Of a stretch of DNA of 64,000 nt, positions 1 through 60,461 are shown in pieces. A model generated the notes under the pieces. The model had not been told where the DNA came from. It was given only the letters and a program-made list of their open reading frames with translations, and ran no database searches. Position numbers and translations under genes: made by a program. Each line of letters starts with the position of its first letter. Positions within the stretch are counted from its first letter, which is position 1. This DNA is from Patescibacteria group bacterium (lineage in GTDB: Bacteria > Patescibacteriota > Minisyncoccia > Phycocordibacterales > JAKFXT01), in NCBI GenBank assembly GCA_038063555.1, contig JBBTUX010000002.1, forward strand, positions 6,806 through 70,805, in the 5' to 3' direction.

Positions 1-470
1 AAGTAAAAAGTGTACTTTCAGATTTTTCTGGAACTTGGAGACGCTTTGAATACAAAGGAAAAATGAAAAGTGGAGCCATAATTTATGATGATTACGCGCA
101 TCACCCTGCAGAAATAGCCGCGACATTATCTGGCGCTCGCGAAGCATTTCCAGACAAAAAAATTACTATTATTTTTCAACCCCATTTATATTCTCGTACC
201 AAACTTTTATTAAATGATTTTGCTGAAAGTTTATCCAAAGCGGATTATGCAATTTTGGCTGACATATATGCGGCGCGAGAAAAACCAGATGAAACAATTT
301 CTTCAAAAATTTTAGCCGAAAAAATCAAGGGAAAAAATAAAAAAGTGAGATATTTTCCCGATTTTGGTGAAATAGAGAAATATCTTTCAGAAAATGCGGT
401 AGAAGGGGATTTGCTTATAACCATGGGCGCAGGCGATATTTACAAAGTTGGGGAGGAGCTACTTGGTTAA
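1..470 (+). CDS. murC: UDP-N-acetylmuramate--L-alanine ligase, C-terminal fragment (5' end truncated by window edge)
   Basis: The open frame runs from the window edge with no stop. Translation gives ...GTWRRFEYKGK...GAIIYDDYAHHPAEI..., matching the Mur ligase C-terminal domain and the MurC signatures RRFE and DDYAHHP. Confidence 0.75.
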   Translation, partial: VKSVLSDFSGTWRRFEYKGKMKSGAIIYDDYAHHPAEIAATLSGAREAFPDKKITIIFQPHLYSRTKLLLNDFAESLSKADYAILADIYAAREKPDETISSKILAEKIKGKNKKVRYFPDFGEIEKYLSENAVEGDLLITMGAGDIYKVGEELLG

Positions 471-480
471 TTTGCATTTG

Positions 481-507
481 TTGCAAGTACAACTTGTCCC
501 GTATAAT
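481..507 (+). promoter_or_regulatory. Putative sigma70-like promoter for the ArsR-like gene (TTGCAA, then about 15 nt, then TATAAT at 502-507)
   Basis: A perfect TATAAT hexamer sits at 502-507, with TTGCAA 15 nt upstream. The -10 box overlaps the left arm of palindrome P1, which is an operator-like arrangement. Confidence 0.3.
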
Positions 508-543
508 CTATACCACTATTCGCTAGAATAGTGGTATAGATTA
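504..543. repeat. Palindrome P1 of family A: 18-bp arms TAATCTATACCACTATTC / GAATAGTGGTATAGATTA around the loop GCTA
   Basis: I read it directly as an inverted repeat. It shares the core ATCTATAC[C/T]ACTATTC with P2 (853-890) and P3 (4154-4197). Confidence 0.9.
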
Positions 544-566
544 CGGAGTGTGGTAATATTGAGGTT

Positions 567-833
567 ATGAATTCCAGAAAGACCGAGGTGATTACAAAAG
601 GCTTGGCTAGCCACAGACGGTTGTATATAGTTGAAATGTTATTTAAAAAACCAGAAATGTCTGTTGAAGAAATTGCCAAAGTGGCCAAGATAAGTCACAA
701 AAATGCTTCTGGCCATATTAACAAACTGACTTCTTCTGGTTTGATAATGAAACGGCATGATGGTAATTTTGTTCGTCATAAACTGACAAAACGTGGCGAA
801 ACCATTCTCAAATTCTTGAGAATATTGGAATAG
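567..833 (+). CDS. ArsR/SmtB-like winged-helix HTH transcriptional regulator (88 aa)
   Basis: At 88 aa it has an ...ASHRRLYIVEML... recognition-helix region typical of the ArsR family. It is about 50% identical to the paralog at 60192-60461. Its 3' end encodes FLRILE* over a short palindrome (ATTCTCAA/TTGAGAAT at 804-823). Confidence 0.6.
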   Translation: MNSRKTEVITKGLASHRRLYIVEMLFKKPEMSVEEIAKVAKISHKNASGHINKLTSSGLIMKRHDGNFVRHKLTKRGETILKFLRILE

Positions 834-852
834 TGTAAAAAATAGAAGCGTA

Positions 853-890
853 CATCTATACTACTATTCGCGCGAATAGTAGTATAGATG
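853..890. repeat. Palindrome P2 of family A: a perfect 38-bp palindrome CATCTATACTACTATTCG|CGAATAGTAGTATAGATG
   Basis: I read it directly. It lies between the ArsR-like gene and the DGR target gene. Confidence 0.9.
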
Positions 891-973
891 TTACAGAAAA
901 ATGGTAAGAAAAAAGTAAGAATAAGAAAAAAAAGCTGATGGCAGACCACTGTCTTTTTTGCTAAAGTAAGGTC

Positions 974-2989
974 ATGGAAAAGTTTGAAGGTGATTTTCTT
1001 AAGGATAAATACTGGGGCAATAAAGAATTCCGGGAAGCCGCGGGGGTTTCGGCTCGCCGCACGAAAAAGCGTGAAAGCGAGAATGTGCCCAATACGCCAC
1101 CTGAGCGCATTGAGAACTACCTCGATCGATTTACCGAGATAACCGATCGGGAAGACCCTGAAAAACGCGAGCGCGGCATTTCTGCCATTGAGCGACTCGT
1201 GGAGAAGAAATACATCATCAAGGCAGAAAATATAACCGATGAATATATAAAAAATGTATTGCTCGGCAATGAAGCCGAACTTCTCGGATACGAGCGGGAA
1301 GATGTAAAAGACGAGCAGATACGAAAAACCGTGCTTGATTCGCTGGAGAATAAAATTCATTCGCCTCTCTCTACATATAGAGTGCCGATTGAACTTCGAG
1401 AATCATTGGAGAATATGATTATTACCGACCAGAAAGGGAGGATGAAGCAGTGGCTCGATTACCTTACAGGAGAAGAAGCGCGTCATGCTCCGGTTGCACT
1501 TCGTTATTGGGCATTCGCCGAAATGCTTAAACAGGGAGATTACGATCCTGTTAGCGGAGAATACAACAAACGCACTAACGCAACAGTTGCAATTTTCCCC
1601 GAACTCGACCAACAAGCCCTTGCCCTTGTTTTTGATGAAGTGGAACGACGAAGAACCGGCAAAACATCTGCACTTTCTACGGGCGATGATGCGCGACAGG
1701 CCGAATTGCGAGATCTGCTTCAACATGAGAATTTTGGTAAGCTCTATGCGTTCATGCAGGAGCATGTTCGTTCGCTAAAATTACCGACCGAGCGTCTTGT
1801 CATCACCGAGGGAGGATGGAAACTCTTTTCAAAAGATTCTTCACCATCTGATTTAACCGCTCCGCTCCAAGGGTATCAGACTAAATGGTGCATTGCGGGA
1901 GAAGGCCACGCTACCAGCTATCTGGAAACTGGTGATGTCTGGATTTATTTTTCAAAAGATGTGGACGGACAAAATACTATCCCTCGCGCGTGCGTTATAG
2001 ATAACAAAGAACACGGTATTACCGAAGTCCGAGGCATCATTTTCAATGAAGAAGTTAAACAACATCTTGACGACTACATCACGCCGGTAGTTGACGCAAA
2101 ACTCAAAGATATGGAGGGTGGTGAAAAATGGGCGGACAAAATGGATGATATGAAGAAGTTGCGTGAACTGCACTTCAAATATTTGCAAAAGGAACCATTG
2201 AATAAAAACGATTTAACTTTCTTGTATGAGATTGACCGACCAATACAGGAATCCGGATATGGTAAAGACCCGAGAATAGAAGAGCTGAAAAAAGGCAGAA
2301 ACAGACAAGAGGACATCAAAACAATGTGTGATTGTAAGGAAGAGTTTATTGCCACAGATTTTATTGATATAAAAGAAATCACACAAGTGTTTTGTGAAGA
2401 TACAGGAGATAAAATAACTTTCTTTGATTTTCGGGAAGGACAAAACAAAGAGAAACTTCTGCCGCTTATGGAATTGGCGAAAAGAATAAAAGAAACTGGA
2501 AGGGGAGCACGACCAGACATGTCATTTGAGGGAGGAATAGTAAATATAAATGTGCCAAAAGAAAAACTAAAGGACTTGCCGACGGCCATTAAGTCATTCG
2601 AAGAGGCAGACAATAATTCACCCTCGTCTATTTGGGAAGAATTAAAAAAAATGCCATTTGCTACATTGGAGCAATCTTCTTTGGAACTTATTGTTCTTTC
2701 TTACAATAAAGACGTAGAAACAAGAAAATCATCAGAAAAAATAGTAGAAGATATGGATAAGCTAGGACTTAGACCAGCTACCTTTGGGGAATTAATTACT
2801 CTTGGCATAATTAAGCCCGTTTTTAACAAGAAAAACGAATATATTGTTGCTCTCGGCACAAAAGCTACTCTGGACGGCGGTGTTCGTGTCTCGGTCTTGG
2901 TCTGGTACGGTGATAAGCGTCTTCTGGATGGCGACGGGTGGACGATCGAGTGGGGCGAGCTTAGCCGTTTCCTTTGTCTCCGCAAATAG
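974..2989 (+). CDS. DGR target protein (671 aa) with a C-terminal variable region
   Basis: This long ORF lies immediately upstream of the TR and RT. Its last roughly 40 codons (VR 2868-2985) align without gaps to the TR, with conserved Trp and Gly scaffold codons (LDGGVRVSVLVWYGDKRLLDGDGWTIEWGELSRFLCLRK versus TR-frame LDGDIHVPNLDWNDGERSLNRNIWDNEWDDRNRFVCLRN). The N-terminal half is GC-richer than the C-terminal half. I recognised no other domain. Confidence 0.6.
   Translation: MEKFEGDFLKDKYWGNKEFREAAGVSARRTKKRESENVPNTPPERIENYLDRFTEITDREDPEKRERGISAIERLVEKKYIIKAENITDEYIKNVLLGNEAELLGYEREDVKDEQIRKTVLDSLENKIHSPLSTYRVPIELRESLENMIITDQKGRMKQWLDYLTGEEARHAPVALRYWAFAEMLKQGDYDPVSGEYNKRTNATVAIFPELDQQALALVFDEVERRRTGKTSALSTGDDARQAELRDLLQHENFGKLYAFMQEHVRSLKLPTERLVITEGGWKLFSKDSSPSDLTAPLQGYQTKWCIAGEGHATSYLETGDVWIYFSKDVDGQNTIPRACVIDNKEHGITEVRGIIFNEEVKQHLDDYITPVVDAKLKDMEGGEKWADKMDDMKKLRELHFKYLQKEPLNKNDLTFLYEIDRPIQESGYGKDPRIEELKKGRNRQEDIKTMCDCKEEFIATDFIDIKEITQVFCEDTGDKITFFDFREGQNKEKLLPLMELAKRIKETGRGARPDMSFEGGIVNINVPKEKLKDLPTAIKSFEEADNNSPSSIWEELKKMPFATLEQSSLELIVLSYNKDVETRKSSEKIVEDMDKLGLRPATFGELITLGIIKPVFNKKNEYIVALGTKATLDGGVRVSVLVWYGDKRLLDGDGWTIEWGELSRFLCLRK
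2868..2985 (+). repeat. DGR variable region (VR), 118 bp, at the 3' end of the target gene
   Basis: It aligns without gaps to 3288-3405, with identical 12-nt 5' and 8-nt 3' ends (CTCTGGACGGCG ... CTCCGCAA). TR AAY codons correspond to diversified VR codons (V, Y, D, D, I, S, K). About 42 of 118 positions mismatch, and only about half of those sit at TR adenines. Confidence 0.55.
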
Positions 2990-3287
2990 ATTTTTGAATT
3001 TTTGTCACTTTGCTTATGATTTAGATATTTTGATTTTGTTCTTTTCTTTTTTTAAATTAAAATAATAATGAGAGTAGATAATGAGTGCGCGGATAAATTC
3101 TTCGCAACATCGAAATCAGTAGAACACAGATCGGAATTTTTGCGTGATAAGTGCGTGAAAAGTGTGTCTGTGTTTTCTTTAAAAAAAGAAATCTACTTGG
3201 CGCATATACGTCTGGCATTATGATGCCGACTTAAATACAATGTATGGTTGCGACTATATGTGGTGGATTGCATGTGTATATGCGAAA

Positions 3288-3405
3288 CTCTGGACGGCGA
3301 TATTCATGTCCCGAACTTGGATTGGAATGACGGTGAGCGTAGTTTGAACAGGAACATCTGGGACAATGAGTGGGATGATAGGAATCGATTTGTTTGCCTC
3401 CGCAA
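3288..3405 (+). repeat. DGR template region (TR), 118 bp, adenine/AAY-rich, non-coding
   Basis: In the VR reading frame it carries 7 Asn (AAC/AAT) codons in about 39 codons. It lies 85 nt upstream of the RT. The ORF-track ORF 3248-3463 covers it and is probably not a real protein. Confidence 0.55.
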
Positions 3406-3469
3406 TTTAATTTCTTTCTCCGCCAGATATTTATTTTGGTGGAGTTTTCTTTTGACTCTCTAATTCCAA

Positions 3470-4183
3470 TTGTTTAATCAATTGGTTATGCCAGTAATTA
3501 GCAAAGCAAGTGTTAGAGACAGAGTTGTTCATAGGTTGGTTTATAACGCTCTTTATTATTACTTTGACTATAAATTTATTTATGATTCTTATAGTTGTCG
3601 AATTGGAAAAGGTACACACAAGGCACAGGCGAGATTCAGAAGTTTTGTTAATAAGGTTAGCAAAAATTATACGGCCTCCTGTTTTGTTTTAAAATTTGAT
3701 ATCAAAAAATGTTTTGAGAGTATTGATAAAAATATACTCAAAAATATACTTTCTTTTCATATTGAGGATAAAGGACTAAAAAGAATTATATTTTCTATAA
3801 TTGATAGTTTTGGAACGGGAATTCCTCTCGGGAATTTGACATCACAATTATTCTTGAATATTTATCTCCACGAGCTTGATTGGTATGTAAAACAATTTTG
3901 GGGGTGTAAATATTACCTGCGATATGCTGACGATATAATCATTATCTCCACCAACAAAGAGAAATTAGAAGAACTATATGCAAATTTAGAAATTTTTCTT
4001 AAAAACAAATTGAACCTCACTACTCACAAGAAAATCATTATTAGTATTTACTCGGGAATTGATATTTTGGGGTTGGTGTTTTTCCCGCAGTATCAACGCT
4101 TGCGACGCAGTACCGAAAGAAGAATAGAAAAAAGAAATAGCAAAATATTTAAACATCATCTATACCACTATTCCATGGAATAG
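3470..4183 (+). CDS. DGR-type reverse transcriptase (237 aa; apparently shortened at both the N- and C-terminus)
   Basis: It contains the RT motifs VRDRVVH (motif 1), CRIGKGTHKA (motif 2), FDIKKCFESID, the DGR-diagnostic GIPLGNLTSQLF motif and YADDIII (motif 5). Alignment from memory to Bordetella phage Brt starts at Brt motif 1 (the first roughly 55 aa are missing) and stops about 40 aa short. The last codons lie inside palindrome P3. Confidence 0.8.
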   Translation: MFNQLVMPVISKASVRDRVVHRLVYNALYYYFDYKFIYDSYSCRIGKGTHKAQARFRSFVNKVSKNYTASCFVLKFDIKKCFESIDKNILKNILSFHIEDKGLKRIIFSIIDSFGTGIPLGNLTSQLFLNIYLHELDWYVKQFWGCKYYLRYADDIIIISTNKEKLEELYANLEIFLKNKLNLTTHKKIIISIYSGIDILGLVFFPQYQRLRRSTERRIEKRNSKIFKHHLYHYSME

Positions 4184-4197
4184 TGGTATAGATGATG
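4154..4197. repeat. Palindrome P3 of family A: a perfect 44-bp palindrome CATCATCTATACCACTATTCCA|TGGAATAGTGGTATAGATGATG
   Basis: I read it directly. It overlaps the RT stop codon (TAG at 4181-4183) and shares its core with P1 and P2. It also creates the spurious mirror ORFs ending ...LYHYSME. Confidence 0.9.
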
Positions 4198-4266
4198 TTG
4201 ACGGTAACACTGGCAATGCAATATTGTAGCCTCTCTTAACAAAAGCTTAACAAAGGATATTTTTTT

Positions 4267-4971
4267 GTGTATGGTGTTTTCATGGCTACGTTTTATATAG
4301 TGGCAACGCCGATTGGGAATCTTGAGGACATGACTTTCCGGGCGATTCGTATTTTGAAGGAGGTGGATATTATATTGTGCGAAGATACACGGGTAACACA
4401 AAAATTACTTAAACATTATGAAATTAACGATAAACAGCTTTCTACATATAACGCACAAAAAAGCTCGGTTAGTTTCAGTAAAATTAGCAATTGGATAAAA
4501 GAAGGGAAAAATTTGGCGTTAGTGACTGACGCGGGAACTCCAGGAATATCAGACCCGGGGAGTGAACTTGTGGAAAAATTAAAGAGTGAGTTTAGTAGTG
4601 AAGAGCTCAAAATTGAGCCAATACCGGGGGCTTCGGCGATTGTTGCGGCTATGTCCGCCGCAGGTATCCCTGCGGCGGAATGGACCTTTTTGGGATTTTT
4701 ACCGCACAAAAAGGGCAGGGAGACCTTGTTTAAGGAAATTGCTAAAGGAGAGAGAACTTTTGTTTTTTATGAATCCCCACACAGGATTATGAAAACTTTG
4801 GAAAAGTTGGCACAAGTAATACTTGATAATCGCAAAGTTGCGGTGTGTAAAGAATTGACCAAAATTCACGAAGAATTTGTAAGGGGGAGCGCAAAGGAAA
4901 TATTTGCTCACTTTAGAAAAAACCCCGACCGTGTCCGTGGGGAATTTGTGGTCATAGTTTCTAAATGTTAA
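4267..4971 (+). CDS. rsmI: 16S rRNA (cytidine1402-2'-O)-methyltransferase
   Basis: It has a tetrapyrrole-methylase fold N-terminus, FYIVATPIGNLEDMTFRAIRILKEVDIILCEDTR, and GISDPG. The true start is probably the M of MATFYIV at 4282. Confidence 0.75.
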   Translation: MYGVFMATFYIVATPIGNLEDMTFRAIRILKEVDIILCEDTRVTQKLLKHYEINDKQLSTYNAQKSSVSFSKISNWIKEGKNLALVTDAGTPGISDPGSELVEKLKSEFSSEELKIEPIPGASAIVAAMSAAGIPAAEWTFLGFLPHKKGRETLFKEIAKGERTFVFYESPHRIMKTLEKLAQVILDNRKVAVCKELTKIHEEFVRGSAKEIFAHFRKNPDRVRGEFVVIVSKC

Positions 4972-5253: not shown

Positions 5254-6469
5254 AGGTAGATTATTTGTCTACACTTTGGCCACGGGCGCTATTTTTGCGG
5301 GCGGCTTTTTTGGTTTGCAGTATTTCCCAGGATTTCTCCCGTCACTTACAACATATAAAAGCCAATTCATAGCGCAAGGTTCCGGTCTTTCTCCCAAAGC
5401 AGAAAAGGTAATGCATCTTAAAACACCAGAACCACTCAAAGCGATTTATATGAGTCAGTGTGTTGTGGGCACCAAAGATTTTAGACAAGATTTAGTGGAT
5501 CTTATTAAGAGAACAGAGTTAAACGCTGTTGTTATTGATATTAAAGATTATACGGGGAAGATTGCTTTTGAAACTGATAATCCAAAACTTAAAAACTCTG
5601 TATCGGGTGATTGCGGTGCAACCGATATGAAAAATTTTATTCTCTCGCTTCATGATGATGGCATATACGTGATTGGACGCGTTACTGTTTTCCAAGACCC
5701 ATATATGACGAAAACACGACCGGACTTAGCGGTTAAAAAGAAAAGTGATAATGATATTGTCTGGAAAGATTATAAAGGACTTTCTTTTGTTGATGTGGGA
5801 GCCCGTGAACACTGGGATTATATTATTGAAATAGCTAAAGAAGCATACGGTATTGGATATGACGAAATAAATTTTGACTATATAAGATTTCCTTCGGACG
5901 GTGACATGAAAGATATTGATTACACATATTCTCGTGGCAAAACAAAAGCAGAGGTCTTAAGAGAATTTTTTAGTTACTTGCACGATAATTTAAAAAGTCT
6001 AGGAGTAATAGTATCAGCCGACCTTTTTGGAATGACCACAACCAATACCGATGACTTAAATATAGGACAAATTTTGGAATACGGCCTTATGTATTTTGAT
6101 TATGTTTCCCCAATGGTTTATCCAAGTCATTACCCGCCAAATTTTAATAATTGGAAAAATCCAAATCTATATCCCGGAGAAGTCGTTTCATTTTCTATGG
6201 GTAAAGCAGTAGAAAGAGCGCTTGCCACTAGCACAACATTGAACCTTATAAATTCAATTCCTATAGCAAGTACTACTCCGCAACTTTATACCAAACCTGT
6301 TTGGGATAAATTAAAACTTCGTCCTTGGCTTCAAGATTTTCAATATGGTGGCACATATGGCCCCAAAGAGGTGCGAGCACAAATTGACGCTACTTATAGT
6401 GTGGGACTCACAAGTTGGATGCTTTGGGCGCCATCCAACAGATACACTGAATCAGCCCTTCTTAAATAG
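5216..6469 (+). CDS. Hypothetical membrane-anchored protein, possibly a glycoside-hydrolase-like (TIM-barrel) domain protein
   Basis: It has an N-terminal TM helix followed by a roughly 380-aa soluble domain. I recognised no definitive motif. Confidence 0.3.
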   Translation: MMKTPPLKVHSNKGRLFVYTLATGAIFAGGFFGLQYFPGFLPSLTTYKSQFIAQGSGLSPKAEKVMHLKTPEPLKAIYMSQCVVGTKDFRQDLVDLIKRTELNAVVIDIKDYTGKIAFETDNPKLKNSVSGDCGATDMKNFILSLHDDGIYVIGRVTVFQDPYMTKTRPDLAVKKKSDNDIVWKDYKGLSFVDVGAREHWDYIIEIAKEAYGIGYDEINFDYIRFPSDGDMKDIDYTYSRGKTKAEVLREFFSYLHDNLKSLGVIVSADLFGMTTTNTDDLNIGQILEYGLMYFDYVSPMVYPSHYPPNFNNWKNPNLYPGEVVSFSMGKAVERALATSTTLNLINSIPIASTTPQLYTKPVWDKLKLRPWLQDFQYGGTYGPKEVRAQIDATYSVGLTSWMLWAPSNRYTESALLK

Positions 6470-60173: not shown

Positions 60174-60191
60174 TAGTGATATTATAGAGTT

Positions 60192-60461
60192 ATGAAAAAC
60201 TTTAGGAAACTGGAAAGGGTAGTGAAAGGATTTTCCAATCACCGAAGAATTGAAATTTTAGAATTGTTAAAAAGAAAACCGGAACTTTCCGTCGTTGAAA
60301 TTGCTGAAGAGTTGAAAATCAATTTCAAAACAGCTTCCGAGCACATAAGAAGATTGGCCATTGCTGGACTTGTAATCAAACGCTCCGAAGGTCCTGCTGT
60401 CCGTCACAAACTCACCCCCACCGGAATCTCTATTCTAATGTTCTTAAGAACATTAGAATAG
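60192..60461 (+). CDS. ArsR/SmtB-like winged-helix HTH transcriptional regulator, a paralog of 567-833
   Basis: At 89 aa it carries ...SNHRRIEILELL... It is about 50% identical to the first copy. Its 3' end encodes FLRTLE* inside palindrome P5. Confidence 0.6.
   Translation: MKNFRKLERVVKGFSNHRRIEILELLKRKPELSVVEIAEELKINFKTASEHIRRLAIAGLVIKRSEGPAVRHKLTPTGISILMFLRTLE

Follow-up and report, generated by a model that had tools for sequence, protein, structure and literature searches.

A decayed DGR cassette in Patescibacteria, very probably the product of a single deletion across the head-to-head 5' ends of avd and the reverse transcriptase gene

Here we describe a reverse transcriptase (RT) gene in a 64-kb stretch of Patescibacteria DNA (hereafter the window) that belongs to an ordinary decayed DGR of known architecture. 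Very probably it is what remains of a cassette of the Patescibacteria TR-(avd)-RT type after a single deletion of ~570 nt across the 5' ends of avd and the RT gene. The deletion is observed directly, as is the loss of both avd and the RT N-terminal extension. It reached across the 5' ends of the two genes, which lie head to head with avd on the minus strand and the RT gene on the plus strand, and took all of avd except the last 20 codons, the inter-gene region in which the promoters of both would lie, and about 75-100 codons of RT N-terminal extension. Left behind is an open frame of 231-237 codons that starts in antisense avd and encodes fingers, palm and a short thumb only. The cassette is most likely a dead remnant.

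The RT core and its two ends

The ORF at 3470-4183 (plus strand) is a DGR-type RT core with motifs 1-7 intact, including the catalytic YxDD. It has 237 codons counted from a TTG, while the NCBI call, labelled 'reverse transcriptase/maturase family protein', is a 231-aa protein from the ATG at 3488. It matches Pfam RVT_1 (E=9e-18; residues 10-202 on profile positions 12-203 of 205), and its best solved relative is Brt (PDB 8ub7), with residues 9-229 aligning to Brt 75-290 of 328 (E=4e-26). Homology to RTs begins at Val9 (3494) with motif 1 (VISKASVRDRVVH; 3494-3532) and ends at 4144, taking in motif 4 (LGNLTSQ, within 3821-3868), the motif-5 block that holds YADD (3914-3946) and the first thumb helix (4091-4135). 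The motif 4 signature of DGR RTs is (I/L/V)GxxxSQ. The remnant carries it as PLGNLTSQ, which is invariant in the homologs and served as a search pattern that retrieved 550 relatives.

This core is undecayed. No stop interrupts its 237 codons, all columns invariant in 15 close homologs are kept, and it deviates at two of the 77 columns conserved at >=90%, against 1.5 +/- 1.7 in its peers. Two strains with ~5% divergence in the rest of the cassette have cores that are 100% identical. When 5.8 billion proteins were searched, thousands of relatives came back, many of them from short contigs; a single protein is identical, and the next closest reaches 74% identity. Close Patescibacteria homologs are 57-74% identical. 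The state of the core implies either that the deletion was recent or that the core is still under selection.

Ahead of motif 1, the N-terminus is truly missing. The original prediction held that the RT starts exactly at motif 1 and lacks some 55 residues. The homologous part does begin there, preceded by eight codons of antisense avd, and the loss is real when measured against Brt and close homologs alike, but that estimate of its size was too small: ~74 N-terminal residues of Brt have no counterpart, and close relatives carry about 75-108 residues ahead of the equivalent (V/I)IHKASV. In 15 of 15 close homologs, a block reading TFENLLxAWNDFVxGKRKREDVN...ICDPKKR lies upstream of IHKASVRDR. By tblastn, the conserved N-terminal block of the homologs matches the window from 3494 onward only, with nothing elsewhere in the 64 kb, and tblastn of the same 64 kb found no displaced N-terminal extension, second RT or second avd. 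Motif 0 is not included in 3470-4183, since the alignments begin at Brt residue 75 and at position 72 of 353 in the group II RT profile TIGR04416; the ORF thus has no N-terminal extension (NTE/RT0) ahead of motif 1. Fewer than 40 residues precede the motif-1 position in eight of 114 aligned homologs, and fewer than 9 in only two.

Two other loci, L024 (678-1565) and L043 (3932-4753), contain RTs without an N-terminal extension, at junctions other than that of the window. The avd gene is intact in L024; in L043 it is internally shortened, and no VR/TR pair was detected there. Deletions at the head-to-head avd/RT junction seem to be recurrent. The closest intact relatives (L001, at ~5985-5996, L087 and L088) carry a homopolymer of 10-11 G within the RT 5' coding region, across which the reading frame varies from one to the other; the tract could be a sequencing error, or it could provide slippage-prone (phase-variable) control of RT expression.

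At the other end, it had been proposed that about 40 C-terminal residues were clipped inside palindrome P3 (4152-4199). The RT remnant is indeed shorter than Brt, of which 38 C-terminal residues (291-328) have no counterpart, and the stop (TAG, 4181-4183) does lie inside P3, but this length is normal within the subclade, and the impression of clipping arose because Brt was taken as the yardstick. Among the 114 nearest homologs spanning the RT core, 0-16 residues follow the position of window residue 222 in 79, and 24-40 residues in the other 35; the window protein has 15. All 15 of 15 close long-contig homologs stop a few residues past RLRRSTERRKKxRE, the same place as the window protein, and the longer Brt-like tail is found in more distant genomic relatives. 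Only the last 10 RT codons (4151-4180) and the stop overlap P3. L087 (RT P0015, 73% identical) has a short tail together with a 117-nt VR/TR pair in which 17 of 17 mismatches fall at TR adenines; a DGR can thus look active with a short tail. Judged by alignment, the RT C-terminus is complete for its subclade. Truncation of a longer RT by P3 was considered and ruled out, the C-tails of homologs being equally short. More broadly, C-tail length is bimodal across the RT homologs (P0002-P0120, loci L008-L086), and the short-tail subclade has no counterpart of Brt 291-328, yet holds loci with perfect A-only VR/TR pairs.

The avd remnant, the deletion junction and the shared reading frame

Among CPR DGRs, 90% have architecture B3, TR-(avd)-RT (Wu et al., 2018, PMC5758913). 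Of 80 related genomic loci, 75 encode an Avd homolog on the minus strand, immediately 5' of the RT. The order in the window fits B3, with the TR at 3287-3413 (plus), an avd remnant at 3431-3493 (minus) and the RT at 3494-4183 (plus). Of the accessory gene itself, the window holds only a C-terminal remnant, the last 20 codons and the stop. Read on the minus strand, 3431-3493 gives WHNQLIKQLELESQKKTPPK followed by a stop, which resembles the Avd C-termini of L087 (WHNQVEKQLELQKGKKNT, then a stop), L088 and L001; the Avd proteins encoded at the three closest loci end in ...GGWHNQV(V/E)KQLE... ahead of the stop. The avd stop lies 18 nt past the TR, the same spacing as in intact loci. A profile built from 75 Avd proteins gave no significant match against all window ORFs (E=35 for the remnant), since the remnant offers too little sequence and Avd C-termini are weakly conserved; it is therefore identified from three close relatives and from its position. 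As ~29% of catalogued DGRs have no accessory gene (PMC5758913), the absence of avd alone would not prove inactivity.

The deletion junction falls at 3493/3494, where the avd Trp codon (3491-3493, minus) directly abuts the RT codon Val9 (3494, plus). The distance between these two codons is 0 nt in the window and 563 nt in L001, 577 nt in L087 and 572 nt in L088; a single deletion therefore accounts for the loss of the RT N-terminal extension, of the avd body and of the head-to-head 5' stretch between them. The ATG-CCA annotated as the start of the RT gene (3488-3493) is the reverse complement of avd TGG-CAT.

This origin of the start bears on the suggestion that the locus encodes a natural minimal RT. 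The first eight codons, annotated ATG included, are antisense avd joined to RT codon ~100, so the protein is a deletion derivative and not a member of a short family. Even as a derivative, the 231-237-aa protein might function as a minimal RT without N-terminal extension or Avd, either in diversification or in a domesticated role, which we regard as improbable. Its catalytic motifs are all intact, with no excess of changes at conserved columns, the ORF is perfectly conserved between strains, DGR lineages without avd exist (PMC5758913), and extension-less RTs recur with other junctions in L024 and L043. Set against this are opening codons of antisense avd that the deletion created, the want of any homolog family with so short an N-terminus (the two of 114 noted above), a promoter region that was presumably deleted, a terminator-like hairpin upstream, the lack of a cognate TR/VR pair and a VR that is static across samples (see below); the truncated L043 is likewise without a detectable VR/TR pair. 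In addition, the bRT extension is needed to position the template:primer duplex (10.1101/2023.10.23.563531). In Brt the N-terminal extension contacts both Avd and that duplex, and cDNA synthesis needs Avd (10.1101/2023.10.23.563531). With extension and Avd both needed in Bordetella, mutagenic retrohoming should, by analogy, be impossible for the remnant.

The TR-covering ORF (3248-3463, plus) and the RT ORF were said to share a frame broken by one TAA, with readthrough or a sequencing error as ways to join them. The shared frame is borne out: translation of 3248-4186 in one frame meets a single stop. That stop, however, is at 3461-3463 and not at 3464-3466, where it was misplaced because the end of the ORF had been taken as excluding the stop. 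The frame common to the two ORFs is coincidental, frame sharing having a chance prior of 1 in 3. The TR-covering ORF matches no family, L001 has an equivalent ORF over its own TR, and the frame is open only because the TR copies coding sequence. What it encodes is the TR copy of the target C-terminus and then antisense-avd residues. The missing N-terminal extension is encoded in no frame of 3000-3494, nor (by tblastn) in any frame of the 64-kb window. Readthrough would therefore add the TR peptide and antisense avd, not the missing domain, and could not restore the enzyme.

These observations leave it extremely unlikely that the TAA is a sequencing error, or is read through, such that a TR-peptide::RT fusion restores a full-length enzyme. 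Two ORFs in frame with one stop between them are what such a fusion would call for, but a shared frame is a 1-in-3 event, the upstream VR-like peptide and antisense avd are unlike an RT N-terminal extension, and the stop, with all of 3300-4181, is identical across samples, assemblies and a second strain. TAA is not known as a recoded stop in Patescibacteria.

The NCBI MAG contig is the window itself, and the comparison adds a Logan contig (5 samples) and three contigs of the second strain. Over 3300-4181, TAA included, all are 100% identical, with zero differences even in the second-strain contigs, which are ~95% identical to the window overall; at least 10 contigs encode the identical 231-aa protein. 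Identity across independent assemblies means that the junction and the TAA are real and fixed, and it disposes of both sequencing error and stop polymorphism as accounts of the TAA. By the same token, we see next to no chance that a faulty assembly, for instance one collapsed across repeats, produced the truncation. Short-read contigs do break at the flanking palindromes, but the junction at 3493/3494 is interior to the contigs and far from the palindromes, no repeat spans it, and it recurs in at least five independently assembled contigs from different runs and assemblers.

The repeats, the target gene and the palindromes

The DGR target gene (974-2989, plus; ORF list) is intact, encodes 671 aa in both strains and gave no Pfam or NCBIfam match. 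Its product ends in the VR framework of the L001 and L087 targets, the VR-type 3' end (2867-2989) matching 3287-3409 of the TR without gaps. The two differ at 45 of 123 positions, 20 of them (44%) at TR adenines. Against these 45 mismatches in 123-127 nt, intact relatives (L088 and L089 were left out of the VR analysis, their upstream sequence being too short) show 9-27 VR/TR mismatches per 110-140 nt, with 67-100%, mostly >=90%, at TR adenines; in L001 the count is 14 of 15. In a common 117-nt register, the window VR has 23 non-A differences from its own TR and 22 from the TR of L087, while the same count between VR and own TR is 0 in L087 and 1 in L001. With its own TR about as distant as a foreign one, the window VR is therefore non-cognate with the window TR, and the window holds no cognate pair with near adenine-only differences. 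Mismatches remain enriched at A sites (p=0.0006), but they are so against foreign TRs too, and this residual enrichment reflects family-wide AAY codon placement.

Between the two strains, the VRs differ at 35 of 123 positions amid nearly identical flanks, with 15 of 32 TR-A positions affected against 20 of 91 elsewhere (Fisher p=0.012); the differences include five synonymous third-position T/C changes. Within strains, consensus contigs are static, the MAG and a contig from 5 samples having the same window-type VR and 3 runs the same second-strain allele, so that no ongoing diversification is seen in the population at the level of these contigs. The local RT could still be dead while an intact second DGR, holding the true TR of this VR, diversifies the target in trans. 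Such an arrangement would account for a VR that is non-cognate with the local TR and differs between strains, with an enrichment at TR-A positions, while its flanks hardly change, and remote DGR targets are known (PMC5758913). We nevertheless consider it unlikely: the five synonymous changes are easier to reconcile with ordinary divergence between alleles than with mutagenesis at adenines, the 3 to 6 samples of each VR allele show no differences, and no second RT, N-terminal extension or Avd lies within the 64-kb window. The variable domain of the target protein is probably frozen in this lineage.

The VR-TR spacer (3068-3286, plus) is likely the upstream part or the promoter of the TR transcript, and may form a structured upstream segment of it. 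It contains the blocks GAGAGTAGATAATGAGTG, CAACATCGAAATCAGTAG, AAGAAATCTACTTGGCG and TATGGTTGCGACT, which are strongly conserved with L001 and L087, as well as promoter-like sites at 3197-3241; a block search across loci found no conservation of these blocks in more distant ones. Immediately 3' of the TR, and before the RT remnant, a hairpin with a T-run (3418-3455, plus) resembles a terminator and has equivalents in L001, L087 and L088.

Strain divergence is patchy across the cassette: it is concentrated in sharp patches at 1500-2300, the VR and 3146-3275, amid identical stretches. From the VR end toward the TR, 2990-3145 is identical between strains and 3146-3275 is ~25% different, with a 14-nt indel. 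In the target gene of the second strain (L003/L005/L006), 1500-2300 is ~10% different and 2300-2840 ~0.2%, which looks like mosaic recombination within the gene. There is thus a tension in the locus between a pristine RT core and ~25% non-A VR/TR divergence. In-situ neutral drift was rejected as the source of the non-A mismatches, being incompatible with an undecayed RT core. From the undecayed core and the patchy divergence we infer that diverged cassettes recombined and that the deletion is recent. The tension also leaves a small room for a selected minimal RT or for diversification in trans.

The DGR sits between the 3' end of murC (to 470, at the window start) with an ArsR/MarR-type HTH gene (567-833, 88 aa) on one side and rsmI (from 4267) on the other. 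Three long perfect palindromes, near-identical and with the core ATCTATACYACTATTC..GAATAGTRGTATAGAT, punctuate this region: P1 (504-543) and P2 (852-891, 20+20 nt) flank the HTH gene, and P2 and P3 (24+24 nt) bracket the DGR, marking the left and right cassette boundaries. Half-sites of the core occur seven times in the window against 0.05 expected. In metagenome contigs L092 and L094, murC, a palindrome, the HTH gene and rsmI are syntenic with no DGR between them; the cassette is therefore a ~3.3-kb insertion bounded by palindromes. The closest RT relatives occupy another locus, upstream of recO. Elsewhere, L095 carries a palindrome-HTH-palindrome module, and in L090 two palindromes lie 736 nt apart around a gene. 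The palindrome was absent from viral contigs, and an Rfam scan of 400-4400 gave only spurious miRNA-like matches on the palindromes, which are candidate operator or recombination sites. With the HTH genes of L092, L094 and L095 as queries, tblastx and blastn reveal a paralog of the small HTH gene at ~60176-60460 of the window; no matching palindrome was found beside it.

A further reading combines the undecayed core with these boundaries: selection would maintain the core as an enzyme that still works, either Avd-free or helped by a partner in trans, and the P2...P3 cassette would be a mobile unit that moves through recombination at the palindromes, which also flank the HTH gene next to it. 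We give this little credence, and continue to favour a decayed cassette that arose by a single deletion.

Likeness to known systems

The locus calls for caution in annotation, as screens that look for an RT plus a repeat would count it as a DGR despite the absence of avd, of the N-terminal extension and of a cognate TR/VR pair. It also shows cleanly that, where avd and the RT gene lie head to head as they do in Patescibacteria DGRs, one deletion can disable both, and it illustrates that Brt is a poor yardstick for the C-terminus in this RT subclade.

The nearest B3 examples are Ca. Nomurabacteria UBA11704 DOZK01000020 (L001/L007) and JAIPIK010000004 (L087). Their RT cores are 73-74% identical to that of the window and share its short C-terminus. 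L001 and L087 also share with the window the order of target with VR, conserved spacer, TR, hairpin, avd on the minus strand and RT, and the VR framework ...LDG...W...EW...NRF.C.RK followed by a stop. The window differs from them in lacking 563-577 nt, that is, the avd body and the RT N-terminal extension, in having a non-cognate VR/TR pair where mismatches at adenines number 17/17 in L087 and 14/15 in L001, and in its site, between murC-HTH and rsmI and bracketed by palindromes rather than upstream of recO.

With BPP-1 Brt of the Bordetella phage, the window RT shares the fingers-palm core, motif 4 of the form (I/L)GxxxSQ, YxDD and the first thumb helix. It lacks Brt residues 1-74, the extension that binds Avd and the template:primer duplex, and, like the whole short-tail subclade, Brt residues 291-328. 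Unlike the Brt system, the clade of the window has avd on the opposite strand.

DGRs without accessory genes (architecture A, TR-RT; Wu et al., 2018) are superficially similar, since the window too reads as TR-RT without avd, but the avd remnant and the truncated RT mark its layout as secondary, reached via deletion, and not natively avd-less. Group II intron RTs/maturases (TIGR04416) provide the best non-DGR profile, on which residues 14-230 of the window RT fall at positions 72-294 of 353. This match reaches 102 bits, far short of the cut-off of 300; the RT has no RT0, X/maturase or DNA-binding domain, and Rfam detects no intron RNA.
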